From the UHGV virus genome UHGV-0097970: 38,949 nucleotides of DNA; one strand, given 5' to 3'. Shown here one piece after another: positions 3,025-38,656 of this stretch; the stretch's first letter is position 1; the number at the start of each line of letters is the position of its first letter. The DNA is from a virus. The position numbers and the translations under genes were made by a program. The notes below the pieces were generated by a model that was not told the DNA's origin, searched no databases, and saw only the letters and a program-made list of their open reading frames with translations.

Positions 3025-3282
3025 ATGATGTACAGCAAATACGATGAGGCGCAGTTCCACTTGAGGCTTACACACGAGTTGCACGCTAAGATTAAGCAGC
3101 GTGCAAAAATGAATAACAGGTCTATCAATTCCGAAATTGTGGCTACGATGGAAGAATCACTCTCCAAACCATCACCTGTAAGCGGGTATCGTGATGAAGA
3201 AGAAAGGCTGGCCTCATTAATCTCGGAACGAGTAAAAGAAGTTGCGGCTGAAATTCTAAGGAAAGAAAAAACCCGCGATTAA
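3025..3282 (+). CDS. mnt: Mnt-like ribbon-helix-helix repressor
   Basis: SKPSPVSGYRDEEERLA matches P22 Mnt SKPSPVTGYRNDAERLA; RHH N-terminus FHLRLTHELHAKIKQRAKMNNRSINSEIV; start chosen at internal ATG after GGTGAGG RBS. Confidence 0.8.
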   Translation: MMYSKYDEAQFHLRLTHELHAKIKQRAKMNNRSINSEIVATMEESLSKPSPVSGYRDEEERLASLISERVKEVAAEILRKEKTRD

Positions 3283-3297
3283 GCGGGTTTAGTTTTC
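3265..3297. terminator. Bidirectional intrinsic terminator between convergent mnt and antirepressor genes
   Basis: aaaaaaCCCGCgattaaGCGGGtttagtttt: GC stem flanked by A-run and T-run, so U-tract on either strand. Confidence 0.6.
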
Positions 3298-3308
3298 ATT
3301 ATAAAATG

Positions 3309-4037
3309 TTACGCCACATTTGAGCCATGTAGTAGGTGTTGTAGTGCTTTAACGCCTTCAGAATTGTAACGGAACGCCTCTACCTGTTTGCTGGAATGCG
3401 CCGATTTATCCAGGAAGAACTTCCCGTACTGCTCAGTTTTGAGGTTGTTTGCGTTAGCAATGCGACCAATCTTGTTGGCCGTTACTCCAAGCTGCTCTGC
3501 AACCTCCCCTGCTGAGTAGTAATGCTCTTCTATTGCCGGAAGAGGTATTGCATTAAAACCAACGAGCGGGTTGATTATACTTGCTGCCGCTGTCTGCTTT
3601 GCCTCAGGCGCAAGATTTGGCATCAGATCGAACAGATTGGTAACAGCTTCAACCGTCATTTTCAATGTTCGCGCTTGACGATACTCAACAAGTCCACTCG
3701 CTGATTTACCGCTTTTAATGTGCGCTTCTTGCATACTTTCAAGTTGGTCTACCAGTGAGCGGCGAACGGCTTTTGACTCGCGAGCGGCAACTCGCAATGC
3801 TTGCTTGATTGACATCTCAATGATAACCATCGAAGTTTTGTTCGCTTTTTGCACTACACTTTTTGTGTAGTGCTCTCCATCCAATTCATCTTCAATTTTC
3901 TCGATGAATTTGTTATTACGAACCTCCGGCTCACCGCACTGTCTACGAGCCTGATTTACCATCTCAAGAAGGCGCTGGCTGTCAATGGTTTTATCCGTGA
4001 CAACGGATCCGATGTTTGCTACATTCTTAAAAGTCAT
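3309..4037 (-). CDS. Putative antirepressor-module / phage regulatory protein
   Basis: 242-aa ORF downstream of ant; AAGGAA RBS 7 nt before MTFKNVANIG; C-terminal region looks like a DNA-binding segment (SAGEVAEQLGVTANKIGRIANANNL). Family assignment from memory only. Confidence 0.45.
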   Translation of the reverse strand: MTFKNVANIGSVVTDKTIDSQRLLEMVNQARRQCGEPEVRNNKFIEKIEDELDGEHYTKSVVQKANKTSMVIIEMSIKQALRVAARESKAVRRSLVDQLESMQEAHIKSGKSASGLVEYRQARTLKMTVEAVTNLFDLMPNLAPEAKQTAAASIINPLVGFNAIPLPAIEEHYYSAGEVAEQLGVTANKIGRIANANNLKTEQYGKFFLDKSAHSSKQVEAFRYNSEGVKALQHLLHGSNVA

Positions 4038-4075
4038 TAGGCATTCCTTATGTGGTAGTAAGGGTGTGACATAGG

Positions 4076-4106
4076 CCGCCAGCAGCACACTGGCGGTTTT
4101 CTTTTT
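4076..4106 (+). terminator. Intrinsic terminator on + strand, antisense to the ant operon
   Basis: CCGCCAG-cagcaca-CTGGCGG followed by ttttcttttt on the + strand. Confidence 0.5.
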
Positions 4107-4125
4107 GCGCCGTCCGGCGCACCAA

Positions 4126-4752
4126 TCAATGAATCCATTCCTCGCCGCGCAGTTTTGCCAGCATTGGCTGAGCGTTCTTTACGACAAAATTGTTGGTATC
4201 AAGATTCTTCATTTCACGAAGAAGTGATTTCTTGGTTTCTTCTGACATATAGCGAGTCTCATATGCGATATCGTAAATCCTTCCTGAAAGCTCAGAACAA
4301 ATTTGCTTCATTCCTGGGTAGATGTGTTTGCACATTTGTTGACTCTTCTCCATCCACAATTGTAAGTAGCAGAGATTAACCAGTTCTTCGTCAGTAAACT
4401 GTTTTGCAATCGGTGAGCATTCTGCCTGCCGATCCAAAATATCCAGCACCCAGCGGCGGAACTCTTTGGCTACCGGAGTGCGAGCAAACATCGCGATTAG
4501 GTGGGCACCGCGTAGTGAGAAAACTCGCACTTTTTTGCGATAATTTCCTGAGGTACTCACTTCGAGTACCTGAGTCATTCCAGCGCTAAACTCATCGCTA
4601 TACTTGTTATAAATCATTGTTACTGCACGACTATTTGCGTATTTAAGTGCAGATGCAATATTAGATGATGTAAACCAAACACCATGCATATCACGGGTGG
4701 GCACCAACTCAACTCCGTGGAAGTTGTATTCTGATTTTGCTACAATATTCAT
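4126..4752 (-). CDS. ant: Antirepressor Ant (Bro-N domain)
   Basis: MNIVAKSEYNFHGVELVPTRDMHGVWFTSSNIASAL...FSLRGAHLIAMFARTPVAKEFRRWVLDIL is a Bro-N-type antirepressor N-terminus; start set at internal ATG preceded by GGAAA; follows arc. Confidence 0.8.
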   Translation of the reverse strand: MNIVAKSEYNFHGVELVPTRDMHGVWFTSSNIASALKYANSRAVTMIYNKYSDEFSAGMTQVLEVSTSGNYRKKVRVFSLRGAHLIAMFARTPVAKEFRRWVLDILDRQAECSPIAKQFTDEELVNLCYLQLWMEKSQQMCKHIYPGMKQICSELSGRIYDIAYETRYMSEETKKSLLREMKNLDTNNFVVKNAQPMLAKLRGEEWIH

Positions 4753-4825
4753 GTTAGTTTCCTTGCATACGGTTACTGACATAGAGGCCCGGTTTGTGTT
4801 CGCGCACTGCCGGGCTTCACTATTT
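4743..4825 (+). ncRNA. Candidate sar-like antisense RNA covering ant RBS/start and arc 3' end
   Basis: Extended -10 TGcTACAAT at 4728-4736 (+) inside the ant start region; + strand hairpin GCCCGG...CCGGGC (4777-4805) followed by T-rich tract over the arc stop. Confidence 0.3.
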
Positions 4826-4999
4826 TTATTGGATGACAACATCGCCCTTTGCCTCAAGTTTCATCAATAACTCCATTCGATAAGCTATCTCTGCCTGAAT
4901 TGACCTATGGCATCTTTTTGCTGATTCGCGGATATGTGAATCAACCTTTTCTGTAAAACGAACCTGACGCGGCTTGATGGAAGATATCTTTTCAGTCAT
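4826..4999 (-). CDS. arc: Arc-like ribbon-helix-helix repressor (57 aa, below ORF-track cutoff)
   Basis: My translation: MTEKISSIKPRQVRFTEKVDSHIRESAKRCHRSIQAEIAYRMELLMKLEAKGDVVIQ; AGGAG RBS 6 nt upstream; RHH pattern as in P22 Arc; directly upstream of ant. Confidence 0.7.
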   Translation of the reverse strand: MTEKISSIKPRQVRFTEKVDSHIRESAKRCHRSIQAEIAYRMELLMKLEAKGDVVIQ

Positions 5000-5041
5000 T
5001 ATGCACTCCTGTTTTTAAAAAACTCATAATCTCACTTTTTG

Positions 5042-5077
5042 TAGTTTGATTATTCACTCACACTCAGTATGAGTCAA
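5042..5077 (-). promoter_or_regulatory. Pant-like promoter for arc-ant with overlapping inverted repeat
   Basis: Minus strand -35 TTGACT (comp. 5072-5077), 17-bp spacer, -10 AATAAT (comp. 5049-5054); ACTCA-N3-TGAGT inverted repeat at 5062-5074 overlaps the -35. Confidence 0.5.
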
Positions 5078-5098
5078 TGAATTTTTTATGGTGAACTA

Positions 5099-5740
5099 AT
5101 GAATTTTGACGATCAATTCCCATCAAGAGTATCTCTGGCAAGACAGTCCAGGGGTATGACGCAGGCGCAGTTGTCAAAATTAGCTGGTGTTGTTCAACGT
5201 CAAATAGCTGCATACGAGGGTGGTGAGGCTAAACCACGGCTTCGGGTATTGCAGGCATTAGCCAACGCATTAGGTACTACGGCTGAGTGGTTAGCTCTAG
5301 GTGAAGGTCAGGGTCCGGGAACAAAAAACGTCATGCCTGACGTTCTGGTAAAGCAAATACCAATCCTCAAACTAGATGAAGTTATGCATTACCTAAACAC
5401 AGGTGAACATTCATCGTCTAGATTTCATCCGGCAATATACAATGTTGGTGACTCTGCATTTGCATTGACTATTGAAGGTGAAGCTATGACTACAAGTTCA
5501 GGTATTAGCTTTCCCAGAGGATCAGTTGTCACGTTCAGCCCTCTAGTAAAAGCTAAAAGCAAAGATTATGTAATAGCATCATTGGATAAAGAGCAAATAT
5601 TGAGCTTCAAGCAGGTTTACATTGGTGAAATAGAGACAAACTTAGTATCCCTAAACCCAATGTATCCTAATATTCTTGTTAGAAATGAAGATGTTAGTAT
5701 TTTGGCAACCGCAGTTTACCTTGAAATCCCGTTGCTTTGA
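5099..5740 (+). CDS. CI/LexA-family repressor (HTH_XRE + S24 fold) with Ala at the nucleophile position
   Basis: N-terminal HTH (GMTQAQLSKLAGVVQRQIAAYEGGEAKP); C-terminal region aligns by eye to lambda CI S24 domain (DSAFALTIEGEAM vs DSAFWLEVEGNSM; LVSLNPMYPNI vs LQPLNPQYPMI); the GxSM serine is Ala. Confidence 0.8.
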   Translation: MNFDDQFPSRVSLARQSRGMTQAQLSKLAGVVQRQIAAYEGGEAKPRLRVLQALANALGTTAEWLALGEGQGPGTKNVMPDVLVKQIPILKLDEVMHYLNTGEHSSSRFHPAIYNVGDSAFALTIEGEAMTTSSGISFPRGSVVTFSPLVKAKSKDYVIASLDKEQILSFKQVYIGEIETNLVSLNPMYPNILVRNEDVSILATAVYLEIPLL

Positions 5741-5804
5741 TATCCTTTAGGAAGCGACACATTATCATCCGGTGTTCTGCTCAAAACTAAGGAGTGGCTA
5801 CTCA

Positions 5805-6443
5805 ATGAAAAAAATAGATATATATAGCGATACATCAGCCTATGTCATAGGCTCATTGGGTTTTTTAATTTTTTTTGTTTGGCAGTACCAGTCACTATCT
5901 CCAGGATGGCGATTTTTGGGGATGTCTTTGATATCACTTGGTGCAGGAATAGCAACGCAGGTGTTGATGTATCTCTTTAATGGATGGATCTCAAAAAGAG
6001 TTGAGAAAAAAAGAGCTACTTCAATATGTAGAAGCCTAGCTATTCCAGAAGACTCTACAGATCAGGATGATATTGCAAAATGTTGGCGGTATATGATTGC
6101 AAGATACTCAAATGAGTTACTGGCAAACAGACTGTCCGACTTAATCGGGATCGTAGTTACCTCTGTTGGAACAATCATCAGTATAGGGATATCAATTTGG
6201 TATGTCGGGATGATTGTCTATTTTGTTTGGAATAGAGACTTCAATGAACCTTCCATTCTTTTTATACCTTTATTTTTCAGGGTATTAGCATTCATATGTG
6301 AGTTATTGCTCTCTTTTTTCTGCAATGTTTTGTTCAACAGATACCCAGGTGAAGCAAGAAAGTTTAATAAAAACTATGATGAGTTAAGGAGAACAGATCC
6401 TTTTCTATCAAGCAAAGAGTTCCGCGATTCCATTCGCAATTAA
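5805..6443 (+). CDS. Multi-pass inner-membrane protein, hypothetical (SieA position)
   Basis: Four or more hydrophobic helices; very AT-rich relative to neighbours; TAAGGAG RBS before ATG at 5805 (track ORF starts 5772); lies between gp16 and immI module like P22 sieA; no sequence similarity recognised. Confidence 0.6.
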   Translation: MKKIDIYSDTSAYVIGSLGFLIFFVWQYQSLSPGWRFLGMSLISLGAGIATQVLMYLFNGWISKRVEKKRATSICRSLAIPEDSTDQDDIAKCWRYMIARYSNELLANRLSDLIGIVVTSVGTIISIGISIWYVGMIVYFVWNRDFNEPSILFIPLFFRVLAFICELLLSFFCNVLFNRYPGEARKFNKNYDELRRTDPFLSSKEFRDSIRN

Positions 6444-22392: not shown

Positions 22393-23016
22393 CTAACGTG
22401 TGACCGCATTCAAAATGTTGTCTGCGATTGACTCTTCTTTGTGGCATTGCACCACCAGAGCGTCATACAGCGGCTTAACAGTGCGTGACCAGGTGGGTTG
22501 GGTAAGATTTGGGATTAGCATCGTCACAGCGCGATATGCGGCGCTTGCTGGCATCCTTGAATAGCCGACACCTTTGCATCTTCCGCATTCTTTCTCAACA
22601 ACTCTCCCCCACTGCTCTGTTTTTGCTATATCAACCGCACGGCCTGTACCGTGACAATCTCTGCATCTTGCGCCCGGCGTCGCGGCACTACGGCAATAAT
22701 CCGCATAAGCGAATGTTGCGAGCACTTGCAGTACCTTTGCCTTAGTATTTCCTTCAAGCTTTGCCACACCACGGTATTTCCCCGATACCTTGTGTGCAAA
22801 TTGCATCAGATAGTTGATAGCCTTTTGTTTGTCGTTCTGGCTGAGTTCATGCTTACCGCAGAATGCAGCCATTCCGAATCCGGCTTGTGATTGCGCCATC
22901 CCCATAGCAGCCATCACATCAGTACCGGAAAGAGAGTCAGAAGCCGTGGCCCGTGGTGAGTCGCTCATCATCGGGCTTTTTGGCGAATGAAATTTAGCTA
23001 CGCTTTCGAGTCTCAT
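22393..23016 (-). CDS. Q: Late antiterminator Q
   Basis: MRLESVAKFHSPKSPMMSDSPRATASDSL... appears identical to lambda Q from memory. Confidence 0.95.
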   Translation of the reverse strand: MRLESVAKFHSPKSPMMSDSPRATASDSLSGTDVMAAMGMAQSQAGFGMAAFCGKHELSQNDKQKAINYLMQFAHKVSGKYRGVAKLEGNTKAKVLQVLATFAYADYCRSAATPGARCRDCHGTGRAVDIAKTEQWGRVVEKECGRCKGVGYSRMPASAAYRAVTMLIPNLTQPTWSRTVKPLYDALVVQCHKEESIADNILNAVTR

Positions 23017-24732: not shown

Positions 24733-24911
24733 CTTGTTTTCCTCGCACGTTCTCTAAGCCACCGGATATCCCACAGGGGAGCCGTGTAGTTGAAGGTTTT
24801 TACGTCAGATTCTTTTGGGATTGGCTTGGATTTATTTCTGGAGCGTTTCGTTGGAAGGTATTTGCAGTTTTCGCAGATTATGTCGGCGATACTTCGTCGC
24901 TGTCTCGCCAC
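24729..24911 (-). CDS. ninE: NinE-like protein
   Basis: [60 protein letters not shown] resembles lambda NinE. Confidence 0.75.
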
Positions 24912-25051
24912 ACGTCCTCCTTTTCCTGCGGTAGTGGTAACACCCCTGTTGGTGTTCTTTCACACCGGAGACACCATCGATTCCAGTAAGGCTGTCCTGG
25001 TCGAAAGCGATCGTCTTCCTTTCGCTCTCCACATCGATAACAGTGCTTCAT
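24878..25051 (-). CDS. Small CxxC zinc-ribbon protein (NinD-like?)
   Basis: [34 protein letters not shown]... two CxxC pairs; overlaps ninE in another frame. Confidence 0.4.
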
Positions 25052-25638
25052 GCGATCACCATTTTGCATGGTTTAATCGCCATGCCGGGAGCCAGTTCAA
25101 AATCGGAGTCGCACTGATTTCCCCACATATCCCACCCGGTCACTTTGTCGCGGCTAAATAACTCACAGCGCGGCACGTCGCCAAGCAACTTAGCTAACAT
25201 GTCTCTTACGATCGGTGGTTTTGCACTGTGCTCCATTCTCGGTGCGGTAAAGTGCTGGCATATTGAAGCGTCCATTCTCTCAGGTAACCGCCCTCGAACG
25301 GCAAACAAGCAATCCTCGCTATTTGCCCGGGTCATATGCCCCATTCCGATCGCACTGTTGCCTTTGTGCTTATTGGTTTTGTGCCAAGTAAAGCCTTTCA
25401 TAGTCATCAACCTGAATCCCCACGCCTCAATTACCTTTAGCGCTTCGGCTGGCTGTGTCGGCACCCACCACATCGCTAACAAGCAAGATTCTGGATCCGC
25501 TAAATCCCATACTGGCAGTCGGCAAATGTCCTGAACATTCATAACATCGTATTTATGTCCAGCACCGCGATTGCCATCGTTGGCTTTGTCGCGATATTGC
25601 CAAGGCGGATCTGCGTAAATAAGTTGGTATTTGTTCAT
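25048..25638 (-). CDS. MT-A70 family DNA N6-adenine methyltransferase
   Basis: N-terminal [12 protein letters not shown] (DPPW catalytic motif); 196 aa; no adjacent restriction endonuclease. Confidence 0.8.
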
Positions 25639-26075
25639 TCAGTTTTATCTCCCCATCTCGCTTTCCACTCCAGAGCCAGTCGCGCTTCGTCTGACCACTT
25701 AACGCCATGTTCTGTACCGAATGCCTGTATAAGCTCTAATAGCTCCGCAAATTCGCTTACACGCATCCTGCTGGTTGACTGGCCTATTACCACAAAGCCA
25801 TTCCCGGCAAGGTTAGGAACAACATCCTGCTGCTTTAATGCTGCGGTAAACACACACTTCCAGCTTTCTGCATCCAGCCAGCGACCATGCCATTCAACCT
25901 GACGAGAGACGTCACCAAGGCAAGCCCAAAGCTTTCGATTCTGGTCTAAGCTGCGGTTGCGTTCCTGAATGGTTACTACGATTGGTTTTGTTGGGTCTGG
26001 AAGGATTTGCTGGATAGCTTGAATGGCGTTCTGCTGATGGATGGGGCTTCTTATTTCAAACGTTAGTTTCCTCAT
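25635..26075 (-). CDS. ninB: NinB recombination protein
   Basis: MRKLTFEIRSPIHQQNAIQAIQQILPDPTKPIVVTIQERNRSLDQNRKLWACLGDVSRQ... near-identical to lambda NinB from memory. Confidence 0.9.
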   Translation of the reverse strand: MRKLTFEIRSPIHQQNAIQAIQQILPDPTKPIVVTIQERNRSLDQNRKLWACLGDVSRQVEWHGRWLDAESWKCVFTAALKQQDVVPNLAGNGFVVIGQSTSRMRVSEFAELLELIQAFGTEHGVKWSDEARLALEWKARWGDKTE

Positions 26076-26310
26076 GGCTCACCTTCTGCACGCATGGATT
26101 AATTAACGCCAAAATAGCTTCTGGTTTCTCAATAACATCGAACCGCTCACCACTTGCCATTCTTACAATCGTAAATCCGGCATCAAATAGGGTTTCGATG
26201 TTGTCAGAGTTAACGTACAAGGGCTCATATGCACTTCTGGTGCTTTCTATCACGCCTGTGCTTGGTGGCTGATAGATGCTGCATTGCATGGTTAATTTTA
26301 TAAATGGCAT
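26056..26310 (-). CDS. Hypothetical nin-region protein
   Basis: 84-aa ORF in operon context. Confidence 0.4.
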   Translation of the reverse strand: MPFIKLTMQCSIYQPPSTGVIESTRSAYEPLYVNSDNIETLFDAGFTIVRMASGERFDVIEKPEAILALINPCVQKVSHEETNV

Positions 26311-27055: not shown

Positions 27056-27136
27056 GCTCTCACCTCTCTATTCCGATCCAATAAAAAAGGGCCACTGTGT
27101 AAGTAGCCCCTGTTATTAACTCTGTGATGTAGGCAG

Positions 27137-28510
27137 TCATACATCCGCTCCTGCATAACGCCGCCCTTTCTGTTGTGGCTGGCTTGCTGCGGTGCATTTA
27201 TTCCGGGCTTCATCCTGGTCGCATGCGACAAAGTGACCGTTGTGGAATCGCTGGTATACAGTCCCTAGAGAGCCAAAGCGGTTTTTCGTTACGATGATTT
27301 CTGCATAAGGTGCGGCCTGACTGTTTTCATCGTACACAGCTTCGCGGTACAGCATGATGATTGAGTCTGCATCCTGTTCGATGCTGCCGGAGTCGCGCAG
27401 GTCTGCGTTGGTAGGGCGTTTGTTCGGTCGCTTCTCAACGTCTCGCGATAACTGACTTAGCGATACAACCGGAGTTTTAAGCTCCTTCGCCATTGCCTTC
27501 AGACTTCCTGAGATGTGCGCAATAGCCAGGTCGTTTCGTTCTGCTTTCGGCTTCTCAATCAGGCCAAGATAATCCGCCATGATGAGTGACAGGTTTGGAT
27601 TTTCCTGTTTGTGTCGTTCTGCGATTGAGCGTATTTCTTCGACCGATAACCGCGAGGCATCGACTACCCATACATCCAAATCTGCAAGCTGACTCATGCC
27701 GTTAGCAACACGCGCCCAGCCTTCGTCATCCATCGATGCAGGATTTCGCAGTACGCTAACCGACATCCTCCCGGCGTTGGCAATGCTTCGCTCTGCAATC
27801 TGCAATGCGCTCATTTCCATTGAGAAAATCAATACCCCGCGTCGGACGTCAGAACCAGGAATAACGCGGCTTGCAACGCCTTCGGCAATCTTCAGCGCCA
27901 GTTCGGTTTTCCCCATACCAGGACGAGCAGCGATTATCACCAGGTCTTCCGCGTTCATCCCTCCGGTGATGGCATCAAGTTCTTCGATTCCGGTCTTCAG
28001 GGTATCTGACTCTTCTCCGTTCCTCAGACGCCTGTCAAGCGTGTCAGTGTAGTCAGTAATGATTTCCCCTAACCGTACAGGTTTTACCTCGTCACGGGGC
28101 TTTCTGATGGCTGAGAGACGCTTTACAAGCTCGTCCATCGCCTGACTCGATGTATCGATGGTTCCGCTCTGAATTGGTTCACGCATTTCATCCATGATTT
28201 CCAGCACCAGACGGCGGTGATAGTTATCAGCGACCATTCCGGCATATCCCTTCAGGTTTGCGGCACTCGGGCAGTTCTTACTGGTCATCAGGATTGACGT
28301 GAAATGCTCCTCTCCGCACGCCTCGGCAACCATCAGCGCGTCGATTAGGTTTCTGTTTCGCGCCTGCTTGCGGATAACCTCGAAGGCTTTCCGGTAGAGC
28401 GGAATTGAAAACGCTTCCGGCTCCAGCGTTGCCAGAACGTCGCTGGCGGTTGGTGTTAATCCACCAATCAGCAGGCCACCGATAACGCTCGCTTCGATAT
28501 CCTGTCTCAT
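27137..28510 (-). CDS. Replicative DNA helicase (DnaB family)
   Basis: 457 aa; Walker A region [13 protein letters not shown]; DnaB-like N-terminus; start overlaps O-like stop. Confidence 0.9.
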
Positions 28511-29751: not shown

Positions 29752-30045
29752 TTAAAATTCCATTTGTATTTGATCAGAACGCTCGGTTGCCGCCGGGCGT
29801 TTTTTATTGGTGAGAATCGAAGCAACTTGTCGTGCCAATCGAGCCATGTCGTCGTCGACGACACCCCATTCAAGAACAGCAAGCAGCATTGAGAACTTTG
29901 GAATCCAGTCCCTCTTCCACCTGCTGATCTGCGACTTATCAACTCCCACAGCTTCCGCTGTCTTCTCAGTTCCAAGCATTGCGATTTTGTTAAGCAACGC
30001 ACTCTCGATTCGTAGAGCCTCGTTGCGTTTGTTTGCACGAACCAT
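29752..30045 (-). CDS. cII: Transcriptional activator CII
   Basis: MVRANKRNEALRIESALLNKIAMLGTEKTAEAVGVDKSQISRWKRDWIPKFSMLLAVLEWG... essentially identical to lambda CII from memory; 97 aa from the internal Met. Confidence 0.95.
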   Translation of the reverse strand: MVRANKRNEALRIESALLNKIAMLGTEKTAEAVGVDKSQISRWKRDWIPKFSMLLAVLEWGVVDDDMARLARQVASILTNKKRPAATERSDQIQMEF

Positions 30046-30102
30046 ATGTAAGTATTTCCTTAACAAATAAGAAGTTATGCGCATCAACTTATGCGCGTTG
30101 TA

Positions 30103-30147
30103 TTCCCGCATTTCGGCGGGAATGATGACCATGACTGTTAAAGAGCG
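30103..30147 (-). promoter_or_regulatory. nutR (boxA CGCTCTTTAAC + boxB hairpin CCCGCCGAAATGCGGG)
   Basis: On the minus strand between cro and cII; the same boxA/boxB pair recurs on the + strand at 31821-31862. Confidence 0.7.
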
Positions 30148-30154
30148 GTGTTAC

Positions 30155-30379
30155 TTATGCTGCCTGATTAGGTTTTGGAAACAGGTGTGGCAAATCGGGG
30201 CGAATTTCGTAAGCCTTGATCTGCCCTCCAGTGGCGTTAACGATGGCGGTAACTTTCTCTGGAGAGACCAATCCGCCTTTCAGCCATTTGTGTACTGCTG
30301 GCTGCGTTACACCACACTTGTCGGCAAGGCGCTTTTGGCTACCGACAATTTTCAAGGCTCGTTGAATTACTAAATTCAT
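30155..30379 (-). CDS. cro: Cro-like repressor
   Basis: MNLVIQRALKIVGSQKRLADKCGVTQPAVHKWLKGG... Cro-like HTH; AGAGG RBS; divergent from cI across the operator region. Confidence 0.8.
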   Translation of the reverse strand: MNLVIQRALKIVGSQKRLADKCGVTQPAVHKWLKGGLVSPEKVTAIVNATGGQIKAYEIRPDLPHLFPKPNQAA

Positions 30380-30400
30380 GAGCATACCTCTTGTGGTCAT

Positions 30401-30490
30401 TGATTATAACCAAAGATAACTCAAGTTATAAAAAATAGCAATAACCTTTGTTATTTTACTTTGGATAACCGTAGTTATAGATTTGTGGGT
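30401..30490. promoter_or_regulatory. OR operator region with pR/pRM; three ATAAC-N4-GTTAT operators
   Basis: Sites at 30415-30428, 30440-30453, 30464-30477 spaced about 24-25 bp; minus-strand -10 TATAAT (comp. 30402-30407) upstream of cro. Confidence 0.7.
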
Positions 30491-31198
30491 ATGAAAACAT
30501 TCGCAGAAAGACTAAATGCAGCCATGAGCTCAGCTGGGGTATCACAATCACAGCTTGCTGACATGGTTGGAATATCTCAGCCAGCCATACAGAAGATGTC
30601 GTCCGGTAAAACAAACGGATCTCGCAAGATGGTTGAATTAGCCAATGCTTTAAAAGTGCGCCCTGAATGGCTTAGTTCTGGTATTGGTGAAATGAGGGAT
30701 GGTGCACATGAAGAACCATCCAATGTCCGTGAGTCATCTTTAAAAGCTGTGGTATGGGAAGACATTAAAAGAAACGATGACGAGTTTGTTGCGTTGCCTC
30801 TTCTTAACGTTTCGCTTTCAGCGGGAAGCGGTAGCTGCGAGCTAGAGGAATCATCGGAGTTCTCTTTGGTTTTCAGAAAGCACTATCTGAAAAAGATGGG
30901 AGTATCTGAAAGATCAGCCAAGCTAGTTAGGGTTGTAGGGCAAAGCATGGAACCAACGCTTCACGATGGCGATGTTGTTGGTGTTAACACGCAAGATACC
31001 ACCATCAGAGATGGTAAAACCTACGCTATTTGCCAGTCTGATTTGTTACGAGTAAAAACATTAATCGCCACCCCTACATCGGTGATAATCAGATCAATAA
31101 ATCGCGAAGAGTACCCGGATGAAGTAATGGATAGAGATGAATTTCATGAAACCGTAAGGATTATTGGCAGAGTATTCTGGTCGTCTCATAGTTGGTAA
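30491..31198 (+). CDS. cI: CI-type prophage repressor (HTH + active-looking S24 peptidase)
   Basis: HTH LSQSQLADMVGISQPAIQKM; C-terminal GQSMEPT (Ser present) and LRVKTL Lys; start at MKTFAERL since upstream ATG overlaps the operators. Confidence 0.9.
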   Translation: MKTFAERLNAAMSSAGVSQSQLADMVGISQPAIQKMSSGKTNGSRKMVELANALKVRPEWLSSGIGEMRDGAHEEPSNVRESSLKAVVWEDIKRNDDEFVALPLLNVSLSAGSGSCELEESSEFSLVFRKHYLKKMGVSERSAKLVRVVGQSMEPTLHDGDVVGVNTQDTTIRDGKTYAICQSDLLRVKTLIATPTSVIIRSINREEYPDEVMDRDEFHETVRIIGRVFWSSHSW

Positions 31199-32055: not shown

Positions 32056-32355
32056 ATGACAGTAGTCATTACATATCTGGCTGACGATAACGCCAGAAAT
32101 CGCCGCAGAGCACGCAGACAGGATCAACGTGAACAGGCAATGCAAGAACAGCGACTGGCGCGAAAAATTGCGCTAAAGCTCTCTGGTTGCGTCAGAGCAG
32201 ACAAAGCAGCATCACTCGGAAGCCTTCTCTGCAAGAAGACAGAAGAAGTCGAGAGTAAACAGAATCGTATTTACTACCGCAAGCCACGCAGTGAAATGGG
32301 TGTGACTTGTGTTGGTCGCCAGAAAATGAAATTAGGCAGCAAACCACTTATTTGA
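32056..32355 (+). CDS. N: N-type transcription antiterminator
   Basis: Arg-rich motif DNARNRRRARRQDQREQ near N-terminus; C-terminus YYRKPRSEMGVTCVGRQKMKLGSKPLI resembles lambda N (WYSKPGERGITCSGRQKIKGKSIPLI). Confidence 0.8.
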   Translation: MTVVITYLADDNARNRRRARRQDQREQAMQEQRLARKIALKLSGCVRADKAASLGSLLCKKTEEVESKQNRIYYRKPRSEMGVTCVGRQKMKLGSKPLI

Positions 32356-37107: not shown

Positions 37108-37275
37108 ATGCACTTCCGAGTCACAGGTGAATGGAATGGAGAGCCATTCGACAGGGTTATCGAAGCAGAGAACATCAACGACTGCTATGACCACTGGATG
37201 ATATGGGCGCAGATAGCACATGCAGACGTAACCAATATTCGAATTGAAGAACTGAAAGAACACCAAGCCGCCTGA
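37108..37275 (+). CDS. Hypothetical small protein (55 aa; not in ORF track)
   Basis: My translation: MHFRVTGEWNGEPFDRVIEAENINDCYDHWMIWAQIAHADVTNIRIEELKEHQAA; GGAG 7 nt upstream; bracketed by terminators. Confidence 0.4.
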   Translation: MHFRVTGEWNGEPFDRVIEAENINDCYDHWMIWAQIAHADVTNIRIEELKEHQAA

Positions 37276-37305: not shown

Positions 37306-37497
37306 ATGACCGATACCAGCCTGATTCCTGAGAAAGAAGTGATGAACAAGCTCGGTGTTTCATCACGTCAGACAATCTGGAACTATACCAAACGGCATGG
37401 ATTTCCGAAGCCAGTCAGAACCCACCCCAAATCATACCTTCGCGAAGCTGTTGAAGGGTGGATTCTTAACGGTGGCGTTAATCAGAAATGCTCCTGA
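37306..37497 (+). CDS. AlpA-family excisionase / DNA-binding regulator
   Basis: EKEVMNKLGVSSRQTIWNYTKRHGFPKPVRTHPKSYLREAVEGWI fits the AlpA/Xis pattern. Confidence 0.8.
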   Translation: MTDTSLIPEKEVMNKLGVSSRQTIWNYTKRHGFPKPVRTHPKSYLREAVEGWILNGGVNQKCS

Positions 37498-38656
37498 TGT
37501 GCCAGAACAATTTATCAGCGTGAAGCTCATACGCTTTGCGCTGAGCCTCTATCCAATCGTGTTTATTGTATACGGACATTATCCCGCCAAGTTCATGACC
37601 GAGCATTCGCTCAGTAACATGAGGCTCGACATTCATCTCGGACAGACGTGTAACAAGCGTTCTTCTGAAATCATGTGTTCGCCAGTAACCTATATCCATC
37701 CCTCCCCTTATTCTATTTACGAATCGGTTGGCTGCAGCGATGCTGATCGGTTTGTTTATGTCTTCTCCAGGGAAAAGAACATCATTGTACGTTGTCATGG
37801 CCTTTTCGAGAAAAGGCTTAATTTGTTCGAAGATTGGACGACGGATAACATTACCCATCTTGCTATGCTCTTTCGGTACGGTCCATACGTTGTCCAGCAG
37901 GTCAAATTCTGTCTTTGTTGCCAGCCTAAGCTCTGAGAGCCTCGCCCCCCACAGCATAAGCATCTGATGAAGGAGCTTATTTGACGTAGACGCACGGCTT
38001 CTTTCAATAGCAAGCCAAATCTTAGCCAGTTCGTGATACGACAGTACCCGATCCCCTACCTCAGCGCGGGAGCCGAAGTCCCTTGGCTGGATGCTCATAA
38101 TTGCGCAACTATCTATCAACTGACGCCGCATGCACCAACTAATTGCTGATCTTAGTTGACTTAGCACCTGCCTTGCTCGGCGTGGATTATCTCTTTCTTC
38201 TTCGGTAAGCAGGTCAACCCATTGCTTAACCGTGATAGAAGATGCCGGACGATTAGGAAATGCGTCATGCATGCGCTTCATAACCGTTGATCGGTAAAGT
38301 GCCTGGGTCTTTTCTCTGAGAGTTGTAGAGACGTAGTTGTCGAACCAGTAGTCGAGACACTGGGCGACCGTCATGGAGTTCTCCACCTTCTCTTCAAAAT
38401 AAGTGCGTGGATCCGTTCCTGAGAAATAGAGCTTTCGCAAGTCAGCAGTGATCTGTCTGGCATCCTTCAAAGACAGGGATGGGTATCGACCAAGCCCAAG
38501 TCGATTAGGCTTGCCATGCCAGCGATAGCGGTACTGGAACTGGATGACCCCCTTCGGTGAAATTCGTACGCTGAGGCCATCGGCATCAGCCACTTCTTGT
38601 GGGCCCGAATATGGTTTACCATAAATAGTACGAAGTTTTGTGTCGCTTATAGCCAT
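37478..38656 (-). CDS. int: Tyrosine integrase
   Basis: 392 aa; N-terminal arm-binding-type region; C-terminal catalytic signature HDFRRT ... GHELGGIMSVYNKHD with Tyr; adjacent to attR. Confidence 0.95.
   Translation of the reverse strand: MAISDTKLRTIYGKPYSGPQEVADADGLSVRISPKGVIQFQYRYRWHGKPNRLGLGRYPSLSLKDARQITADLRKLYFSGTDPRTYFEEKVENSMTVAQCLDYWFDNYVSTTLREKTQALYRSTVMKRMHDAFPNRPASSITVKQWVDLLTEEERDNPRRARQVLSQLRSAISWCMRRQLIDSCAIMSIQPRDFGSRAEVGDRVLSYHELAKIWLAIERSRASTSNKLLHQMLMLWGARLSELRLATKTEFDLLDNVWTVPKEHSKMGNVIRRPIFEQIKPFLEKAMTTYNDVLFPGEDINKPISIAAANRFVNRIRGGMDIGYWRTHDFRRTLVTRLSEMNVEPHVTERMLGHELGGIMSVYNKHDWIEAQRKAYELHADKLFWHIRSISD

Follow-up and report, generated by a model that had tools for sequence, protein, structure and literature searches.

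The virus genome UHGV-0097970, referred to below as the window (the whole stretch of DNA analysed, 38,949 nucleotides), is a mosaic P22-like Escherichia coli prophage and carries, in its nin region, a small gene coding for a member of the MT-A70 family of S-adenosylmethionine (SAM)-dependent adenine-N6 methyltransferases. The gene is intact, its product has a predicted fold matching the family, no restriction endonuclease accompanies it, it represents one cistron of the nin operon, and it lies in a slot whose occupant is exchanged among related prophages. An earlier note on this DNA had placed an adenine methyltransferase with a DPPW motif at this position of the nin region, and both the coordinates and the motif proved correct. 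The gene is already known, being present in RefSeq as 'MT-A70 family methyltransferase' (WP_021560741). Its features are as follows:

25048..25638, minus strand: MT-A70 family SAM-dependent adenine-N6 methyltransferase gene; 196 amino acids (aa), ATG start, catalytic core only (open reading frame (ORF), Pfam, PHROG, PADLOC, AlphaFold2 and Foldseek)
25600..25611, minus strand: codons of the catalytic motif IV, DPPW (residues 10-13), from the translation; the motif scan puts the D codon at 25611

Family, integrity and predicted fold

The 196-aa ORF matches the Pfam MT-A70 profile (PF05063) from end to end (positions 1-172 of 172, E 2.2e-25, 90 bits against a cut-off of 23.9), as well as PHROG 359 'DNA methyltransferase' (E 3.8e-107) and the PADLOC Type II methyltransferase model PDLC03262 (MTase_II, E 2.5e-70); no model matched in an NCBIfam scan of the protein. 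The motif order is permuted and of the class-beta type, with an N-terminal DPPW (10-13) followed by HSAKP (137-141), ELFSR (159-163) and WGNQ (172-175). An alignment of 50 relatives, sharing 37-55% mutual identity, has 20 invariant columns, among them D and W in DPPW, S, K and P in HSxKP, E, F and R in ELFxR, and W and G in GW..WG; the window protein retains all 20 of them.

The gene was also compared with five homologues, from Erwinia phage 59, epsilon15, the Shiga toxin (Stx) phage P27, a Salmonella prophage and an Edwardsiella prophage. The proportion of synonymous differences (pS) was 0.78-0.88, that is, saturated, and that of nonsynonymous differences (pN) 0.14-0.26; because of the saturation, pN and pS are given instead of dN/dS. 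A saturated pS combined with a low pN indicates purifying selection on the methyltransferase gene.

The wider family comprises 12,524 clusters at 50% identity (E up to 1e-3). Some of the homologues (P0124 and others in the alignment) are split by HNH, LAGLIDADG or intein/homing-endonuclease insertions, and others bear N-terminal ParB (ParB_N) or HTH domains; compared with these, the window protein represents a minimal form.

The AlphaFold2 model of the protein reached a predicted local distance difference test score (pLDDT) of 79.5 and a predicted template modelling score (pTM) of 0.81; its residues of low confidence fall in the C-terminal tail and in two loops (19-21 and 97-103). Probing with this model, Foldseek retrieved the METTL3 catalytic domain (E 5e-13) and Tetrahymena MTA1 (~1e-11), with a TM-score of ~0.67, and the top 50 matches were METTL3 or MTA1 without exception. 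The best sequence matches in the PDB belong to the same two proteins (MTA1, E 6e-11; METTL3, E 1e-6). According to the model, the protein would consist of the catalytic core alone, with no extra target-recognition or nucleic-acid-binding domain evident. Solved class-beta relatives work as dimers; for this reason, the window enzyme is probably homodimeric.

The absence of an adjacent restriction endonuclease, reported in the earlier note, was confirmed: the larger ORFs of the window lacking an assignment were scanned with Pfam and PADLOC, which retrieved no such enzyme, and the two ORFs without any match in these scans (3309..4088 and 5772..6443) sit more than 19 kb from the methyltransferase. 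A second amino-methyltransferase was not found in the window by tblastn with M.EcoVT2Dam, phage Dcm and NinC as queries, and a scan of the window for [DNS]PP[YFWH] gave DPPW as the sole motif within a credible gene. Moreover, neither an endonuclease nor a remnant of one neighbours the methyltransferase in seven related loci, which include those of E. coli EFF60, epsilon15, Stx phage P27, Erwinia phage 59, and the Salmonella and Edwardsiella prophages. The linked endonuclease of matching specificity that characterizes a Type II restriction-modification system is, therefore, lacking in the window and in these seven loci, and the gene has the traits of an orphan phage methyltransferase, that is, no cognate endonuclease nearby and a location in a prophage early/lytic operon.

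The nin operon and its predicted expression

The features on which the predicted expression of the gene depends, together with its flanking genes, are the following:

32056..32355, plus strand: candidate N-like antiterminator with an arginine-rich N-terminus (weak Pfam N_peptide match, E 0.0023, below cut-off)
30461..31198, plus strand: CI-type repressor (HTH plus S24 peptidase; Pfam Peptidase_S24, E 1.6e-17, and HTH_3), divergent from cro
30403..30432, minus strand: PR-like promoter, TTTATA-18-TATAAT (promoter scan, 10/12 matches), upstream of the cro, cII, O-like, DnaB-like and nin genes
30155..30400, minus strand: cro
29752..30132, minus strand: cII
27137..28510, minus strand: DnaB-like helicase gene
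27087..27111, minus strand: intrinsic-terminator-like hairpin where lambda has tR2 (terminator scan; stem of 10 bp with 5 GC pairs, and a T-run), directly after the helicase gene and upstream of the nin genes
25635..26075, minus strand: ninB, recombination mediator (Pfam NinB, E 2.7e-54); its stop codon, TGA, overlaps the start codon of the methyltransferase (ATGA at 25638..25635)
24878..25051, minus strand: ninD; its canonical ATG (25051..25049) overlaps the methyltransferase TGA (ATGA at 25051..25048; junction alignment)
22393..23016, minus strand: Q antiterminator, at the distal end of the nin operon (Pfam Antiterm, E 1.3e-57), followed by a PR'-like promoter and a terminator

The minus-strand order is PR-like promoter, cro, cII, O-like gene, DnaB-like helicase gene, terminator, small ORFs, ninB, methyltransferase, ninD, other nin genes and Q. 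Pfam identified NinB, NinD, NinE, NinF, a Rha/KilAC antirepressor, YbcO/DUF1364, RusA, NinH and Q among the neighbours on this strand, in agreement with the nin location given in the earlier note, to which the ATGA joins to ninB and ninD can now be added. These overlaps suggest that the methyltransferase is translationally coupled to both genes. As for ninD, a longer ORF (ORF-finder/RefSeq-style start at 25069) would code for 63 aa and overlap the methyltransferase by 22 nucleotides. Pfam NinD covers residues 7-63 of this ORF, the ATG at 25051..25049 gives a 57-aa form, and the ninD of NinC-type and empty-slot prophages (56 aa plus stop) aligns with that same ATG; the start at 25069 is probably an annotation artefact.

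On the minus strand between the terminator and the gene (27111 to 25638), the promoter scan found no sigma-70-like promoter. The gene sits behind a tR2-like terminator in a PR operon repressed by CI, which makes expression in the lytic cycle likely and a role in the lysogen unlikely; judging from this arrangement, the methyltransferase is likely expressed with the delayed-early lytic genes and silent in the lysogen.

The nin region also contains an 84-aa ORF (26056..26310, minus strand) with a sub-threshold Pfam FlbD match (E 3.2e-5, 23.9 bits against a cut-off of 24.7), which is kept in related prophages as a hypothetical protein. Elsewhere in the window, an immI-like island (3309..6443) includes an antirepressor with Bro-N and P22_AR_C domains (4126..4857) and, as a second repressor, an HTH/S24 LexA-like protein (5099..5740); both are flanked by the two ORFs without a Pfam or PADLOC match mentioned above (259 aa on the minus strand and 223 aa on the plus strand, respectively), possible moron or defence genes. 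A tRNA scan for the prophage ends found no tRNA.

Exchange of the ninB-ninD slot and related enzymes

The gene was found at a nucleotide identity of at least 95% (95-100%) in 39 out of 5426 complete E. coli genomes, always between ninB and ninD. The sole match at the DNA level in the phage collection is a distant one (Erwinia phage 59, two accessions, 74%); at the protein level, 517 phage records match, with identities of 82.5% for Erwinia phage 59, 69-79% for epsilon15, SPN1S and phiV10, and about 64% for Stx2a phages, many Vibrio phages being matched as well. The nearest proteins outside E. coli are those of Cronobacter, Cedecea, Pantoea and Erwinia (83-92%).

Orphan methyltransferases in the slot between ninB and ninE of lambdoid nin regions are classical, having been recognized since VT2-Sakai and 933W. 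Among prophages that share about 95-98% identity with the window in the flanks, this slot exists in four states, holding the MT-A70 gene (39 genomes), a Dam-family gene, NinC, or nothing, and the ATGA overlap junctions are present in every one of them. The Dam-family state (1566 genomes) consists of a 175-aa gene of Pfam Dam PF05869, 99% identical to VT2-Sakai orf32, that is, M.EcoVT2Dam. The NinC state (384 genomes, 149 of them with a full-length copy) is represented in E. coli T28R (locus 3049..3921) and brings in a third occupant, a member of the 3'-phosphoadenosine-5'-phosphosulfate (PAPS) reductase family, which we take to be the fold family of DndC-type DNA-modification enzymes. The ninB-ninD slot may represent a general site for nucleic-acid-modification cassettes.

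The MT-A70 protein has no detectable similarity to M.EcoVT2Dam (BLASTP, E 7.3) and no match to PF05869, and hence is not a Dam-family member. On these comparisons, the slot swap appears to be a non-homologous replacement between two small orphan adenine methyltransferases. The sister prophages in their different slot states constitute a natural swap and offer a clean genetic system for asking whether the MT-A70 and Dam enzymes are interchangeable.

With regard to its relatives, the window protein can be assigned to an epsilon15-type subgroup, with the enzymes of epsilon15 (NP_848237), phiV10, SPN1S and Erwinia phage vB_EhrS_59 (gp65), which share 69-83% identity with it by tblastn; in the alignment, the identity to epsilon15-type enzymes is 77-81%. 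This subgroup has been labelled 'adenine methylase' since the epsilon15 genome. The Stx phage P27 methyltransferase is more distant (62-64% identity over ~187 residues), and its identity to the window protein is uneven: 74% in residues 1-85, 33% in residues 86-103 and 24% in the tail (176-196). The last of these regions is not conserved, and it is 12 residues shorter in the window protein. Residues 86-103, which overlap the least confident loop of the model, are 100% identical between the window protein and epsilon15. It is at this position, according to the motif order, that the target-recognition element of class-beta enzymes sits.

Substrate and role of the enzyme

The self-methylation of phage DNA that the earlier note had proposed is the most likely role of the enzyme, with the DNA substrate being, at present, an assumption. 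In this form, namely a lytic-phase, probably homodimeric N6-adenine DNA methyltransferase modifying progeny phage DNA, we consider it somewhat probable. DNA is most likely the substrate in view of the orphan state of the gene, its lytic operon, the slot in common with M.EcoVT2Dam, whose GATC specificity is established (PMC6602927), and the behaviour of M.EcoGV of O104:H4. The latter is mentioned in a study of the phage phiPA8 as methylating GATC when overproduced in vivo (Fang et al. 2012, as cited in PMC10810198), and Table 3 of a second paper lists it as GATC by PacBio (PMC6602927). GATC would be our leading guess for the motif of the window enzyme as well, by analogy; it is unproven and, taken overall, rather doubtful.

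According to this scenario, an active stand-alone MT-A70-type SAM-dependent adenine-N6 methyltransferase, probably a homodimer, would be produced from one cistron of the delayed-early PR/nin operon, apparently coupled in translation to ninB and ninD. In the lysogen the gene would be silent, with CI repressing PR and the tR2-like terminator lying upstream; after induction or infection, the enzyme would be made once N-type antitermination operates, reading through the tR2-like terminator. Replicating phage DNA would then be methylated at a short motif, and the packaged genomes would exit fully N6-methylated. The expected benefit is that the progeny would be shielded from restriction systems blocked by methylation; a second one would be to offset a host Dam that becomes limiting during burst replication. 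Protection and Dam compensation are the role ascribed to the unrelated M.EcoVT2Dam in the same slot of sister prophages.

The closest relative studied biochemically is M.EcoPA8orf6770P, the MT-A70/DPPW enzyme encoded by gp5 at the left end of the Stx2a prophage phiPA8 (Gong, Chakraborty & Koudelka 2023, PMC10810198). It increases spontaneous induction as well as virulence, effects not seen with a DPPW-to-APPA mutant; purified alone, it showed near-background, substrate-unspecific use of SAM on DNA (including dam- DNA) or RNA; bound 1:1 to PNB-2, the product of the gene upstream, it used RNA more than 13-fold over DNA and preferred 16S rRNA and 30S subunits (PMC10810198). The enzyme is co-transcribed with PNB-2, near int, from a stationary-phase promoter active in lysogens, and its C-terminal tail was proposed as needed for PNB-2 binding (PMC10810198). 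M.EcoGV is very similar to it, and many relatives are annotated as GATC enzymes in REBASE (PMC10810198), so that the substrates reported for the Stx enzyme are in conflict: GATC DNA in vivo and 16S rRNA in vitro. The P27 gene used here (extracted locus 3495-4121) matches the mutagenic primer of that study in 35/40 bases, the differences being the mutated codons only.

Several points weigh against a DNA methyltransferase modifying progeny genomes. The only purified relative, M.EcoPA8orf6770P, is near-background on DNA and prefers 16S rRNA with PNB-2 (PMC10810198), and it is for this reason that 'DNA methyltransferase' must be called an assumption. In the literature searched, the Stx-phage study was the only one found that bears on the specificity of the epsilon15-type subgroup, and no measured activity, motif or substrate was retrieved for the subgroup or for the window protein. 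Residues 86-103 have diverged from the Stx enzyme, so that neither the GATC nor the rRNA specificity would transfer safely to the window protein. Stx2a phages can hold both an MT-A70 gene and M.EcoVT2Dam (PMC6602927), which argues against mere redundancy between two GATC enzymes. Furthermore, promoters and terminators were called solely from matches to the consensus, and GATC is under-represented in the window (observed/expected 0.47).

As a clue to specificity, the depletion of GATC was discarded as uninformative, since enterobacterial phages usually show it. Among 4-bp palindromes, CTAG (observed/expected 0.30), GGCC (0.46) and GATC itself are those most strongly depleted in the window; inside the 591-bp methyltransferase gene there are five GATC sites, against ~1.4 expected from the window average.

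Among the alternatives, the enzyme might be an RNA methyltransferase like M.EcoPA8orf6770P-PNB-2, acting on 16S rRNA or another RNA, and hardly or not at all on DNA, so as to tune translation during induction or in lytic growth. We regard this as unlikely, even if it agrees with the rRNA preference of the phiPA8 holoenzyme, with the presence of the mRNA methyltransferase METTL3 among the nearest solved structures, and with the bare catalytic core of the model, in which no DNA-recognition domain is evident. The window has the homologous catalytic subunit of that holoenzyme but neither an adjacent PNB-2 nor the full-length tail (last ~27 aa): the presumed PNB-2, a 67-aa P27 protein encoded directly upstream of the methyltransferase, to which the preference for RNA would be due, retrieved no homologue from the window by tblastn (best E 0.65), and the region linked to its binding is the one that is shortened and not conserved. 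The PerC-like and DUF1317 genes preceding epsilon15-type copies are also absent, and, of all the partner genes of homologues probed by tblastn (PNB-2, PerC-like, DUF1317 and other neighbours), only a PNB-1-like ORF was matched in the window. The authors of the phiPA8 study themselves describe shorter isoforms without PNB-2 outside Shiga toxin-producing E. coli, and the modified rRNA base was not mapped in their work (PMC10810198). The slot, moreover, is one used by a bona fide DNA Dam enzyme, and the best PDB sequence match, Tetrahymena MTA1, is a DNA methyltransferase. A broader version, in which stand-alone epsilon15-type MT-A70 enzymes would be writers of N6-methyladenine (m6A) in RNA, or dual DNA/RNA enzymes, acting without PNB-2 on rRNA, tRNA or mRNA in lytic development, appears quite unlikely; if true, RNA methylation would be a widespread unrecognised layer of temperate-phage control in Enterobacterales. 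In a related reading of this kind, the distinct loop 86-103 would give these enzymes a DNA specificity unlike GATC.

The PNB-1-like ORF just mentioned (55 aa, 37108..37275, plus strand) is 97.5% identical over 40 residues to the P27 ORF (3059-3268) located ahead of PNB-2 and the MT-A70 gene. In the window, an AlpA-like excisionase gene, xis (37306..37497), and int (37478..38656, minus strand) come directly after it. Since it runs straight into xis/int, the left-end methyltransferase slot of the Stx and epsilon15 type is empty in the window, the nin slot being the one that is filled.

Secondly, the enzyme could be an adenine DNA methyltransferase of low or no specificity, similar to M.EcoGII or Hia5, laying an m6A blanket for broad anti-restriction rather than modifying GATC. 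The 196-aa core, with only ~18 residues at the position of the target-recognition domain, would fit this idea. Methyl-adenine-dependent type IV restriction, however, targets heavily m6A-modified DNA, and a blanket of this kind would expose the phage to it. E. coli prophages do carry non-specific adenine methylases, kept silent as toxic (PMC5778455), and the purified Stx-phage homologue was weak and not substrate-specific (PMC10810198); on the other hand, the related M.EcoGV gave a defined GATC motif in the table cited above (PMC6602927). As relatives, M.EcoGII (349 aa, DPPY, with a central target-recognition domain and not MT-A70) and Hia5/Hin1523 (a group of the alpha class) were rejected, since they belong to other families (PMC5778455) and provide an analogy only. 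In our opinion there is little probability that this interpretation is right.

The epigenetic effect on the lysogen suggested in the earlier note, by which methylation of host or prophage DNA would change expression or spontaneous induction, found no support in the operon analysis, and we judge it improbable. The Stx-phage homologue is indeed expressed in lysogens and raises spontaneous induction (PMC10810198), and there may be leaky read-through of nin-region terminators. The window gene, however, is not a left-end gene with its own promoter: it is ATGA-linked to ninB inside the CI-repressed PR operon, behind the tR2-like terminator, with no sigma-70-like promoter in between, and E. coli methylome studies find prophage methyltransferases generally silent (PMC4659465, PMC5778455).

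Finally, a passenger without function, a gene in decay, or the methylase half left by a broken restriction-modification system would agree with the rarity of the gene (39/5426 genomes) and with a slot that can be empty without obvious harm, but it is very improbable given an intact ORF with every invariant family residue, the strong purifying selection, the 95-100% nucleotide identity across the 39 genomes, the precise ATGA junctions at both ends, and the lack of an adjoining endonuclease remnant in the window and the seven related loci.

As a sequence feature, the gene is routine; its residual value, a modest one, lies in the DNA-versus-rRNA question and in the exchange with Dam that nature provides at this slot. 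Whether bacterial and phage MT-A70 enzymes act on GATC DNA or on 16S rRNA is contested, and a nin-operon member without PNB-2 is a simple test case for a subgroup present in thousands of prophages of Salmonella, Klebsiella, Erwinia and E. coli.

Comparison with known systems places the window gene as follows. M.EcoVT2Dam is found in the very same ninB-to-ninD/E slot, coupled through ATGA in the same way, and is likewise a small (175 aa) orphan phage adenine methyltransferase; it differs in belonging to PF05869, in having NPPY rather than DPPW, and in being about 40 times commoner in E. coli genomes (1566 against 39). M.EcoPA8orf6770P and M.EcoGV share with the window protein the DPPW, HSxKP, ELFxR and WGNQ motifs, a size of ~200 aa and the condition of prophage-borne orphans, but the Stx gene stands at the left end near int with PNB-2, whereas the window gene is in the nin operon with ninB as its upstream gene.

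METTL3-METTL14 (m6A in mRNA) and the ciliate MTA1/AMT1 complex (DNA N6-methyladenine at ApT) have the fold and the catalytic motifs in common with the window protein, at an identity of only ~22-25%; they are obligate heterodimers with an inactive paralogue and nucleic-acid-binding partners, whereas the window has no paralogue or partner gene. M.EcoGII and M.EcoGI resemble the window gene in being prophage-encoded, orphan, of class-beta motif order and, as predicted for the window gene, silent in the lysogen (PMC5778455), a likeness of function alone. The epsilon15-type enzymes are, like the window gene, orphans of temperate-phage early operons. The epsilon15 and Salmonella prophage copies close the early-left operon, adjacent to int and with a PerC-like gene before them, while the window gene is nin-located; the copy of Erwinia phage 59 directly follows ninB, as in the window.

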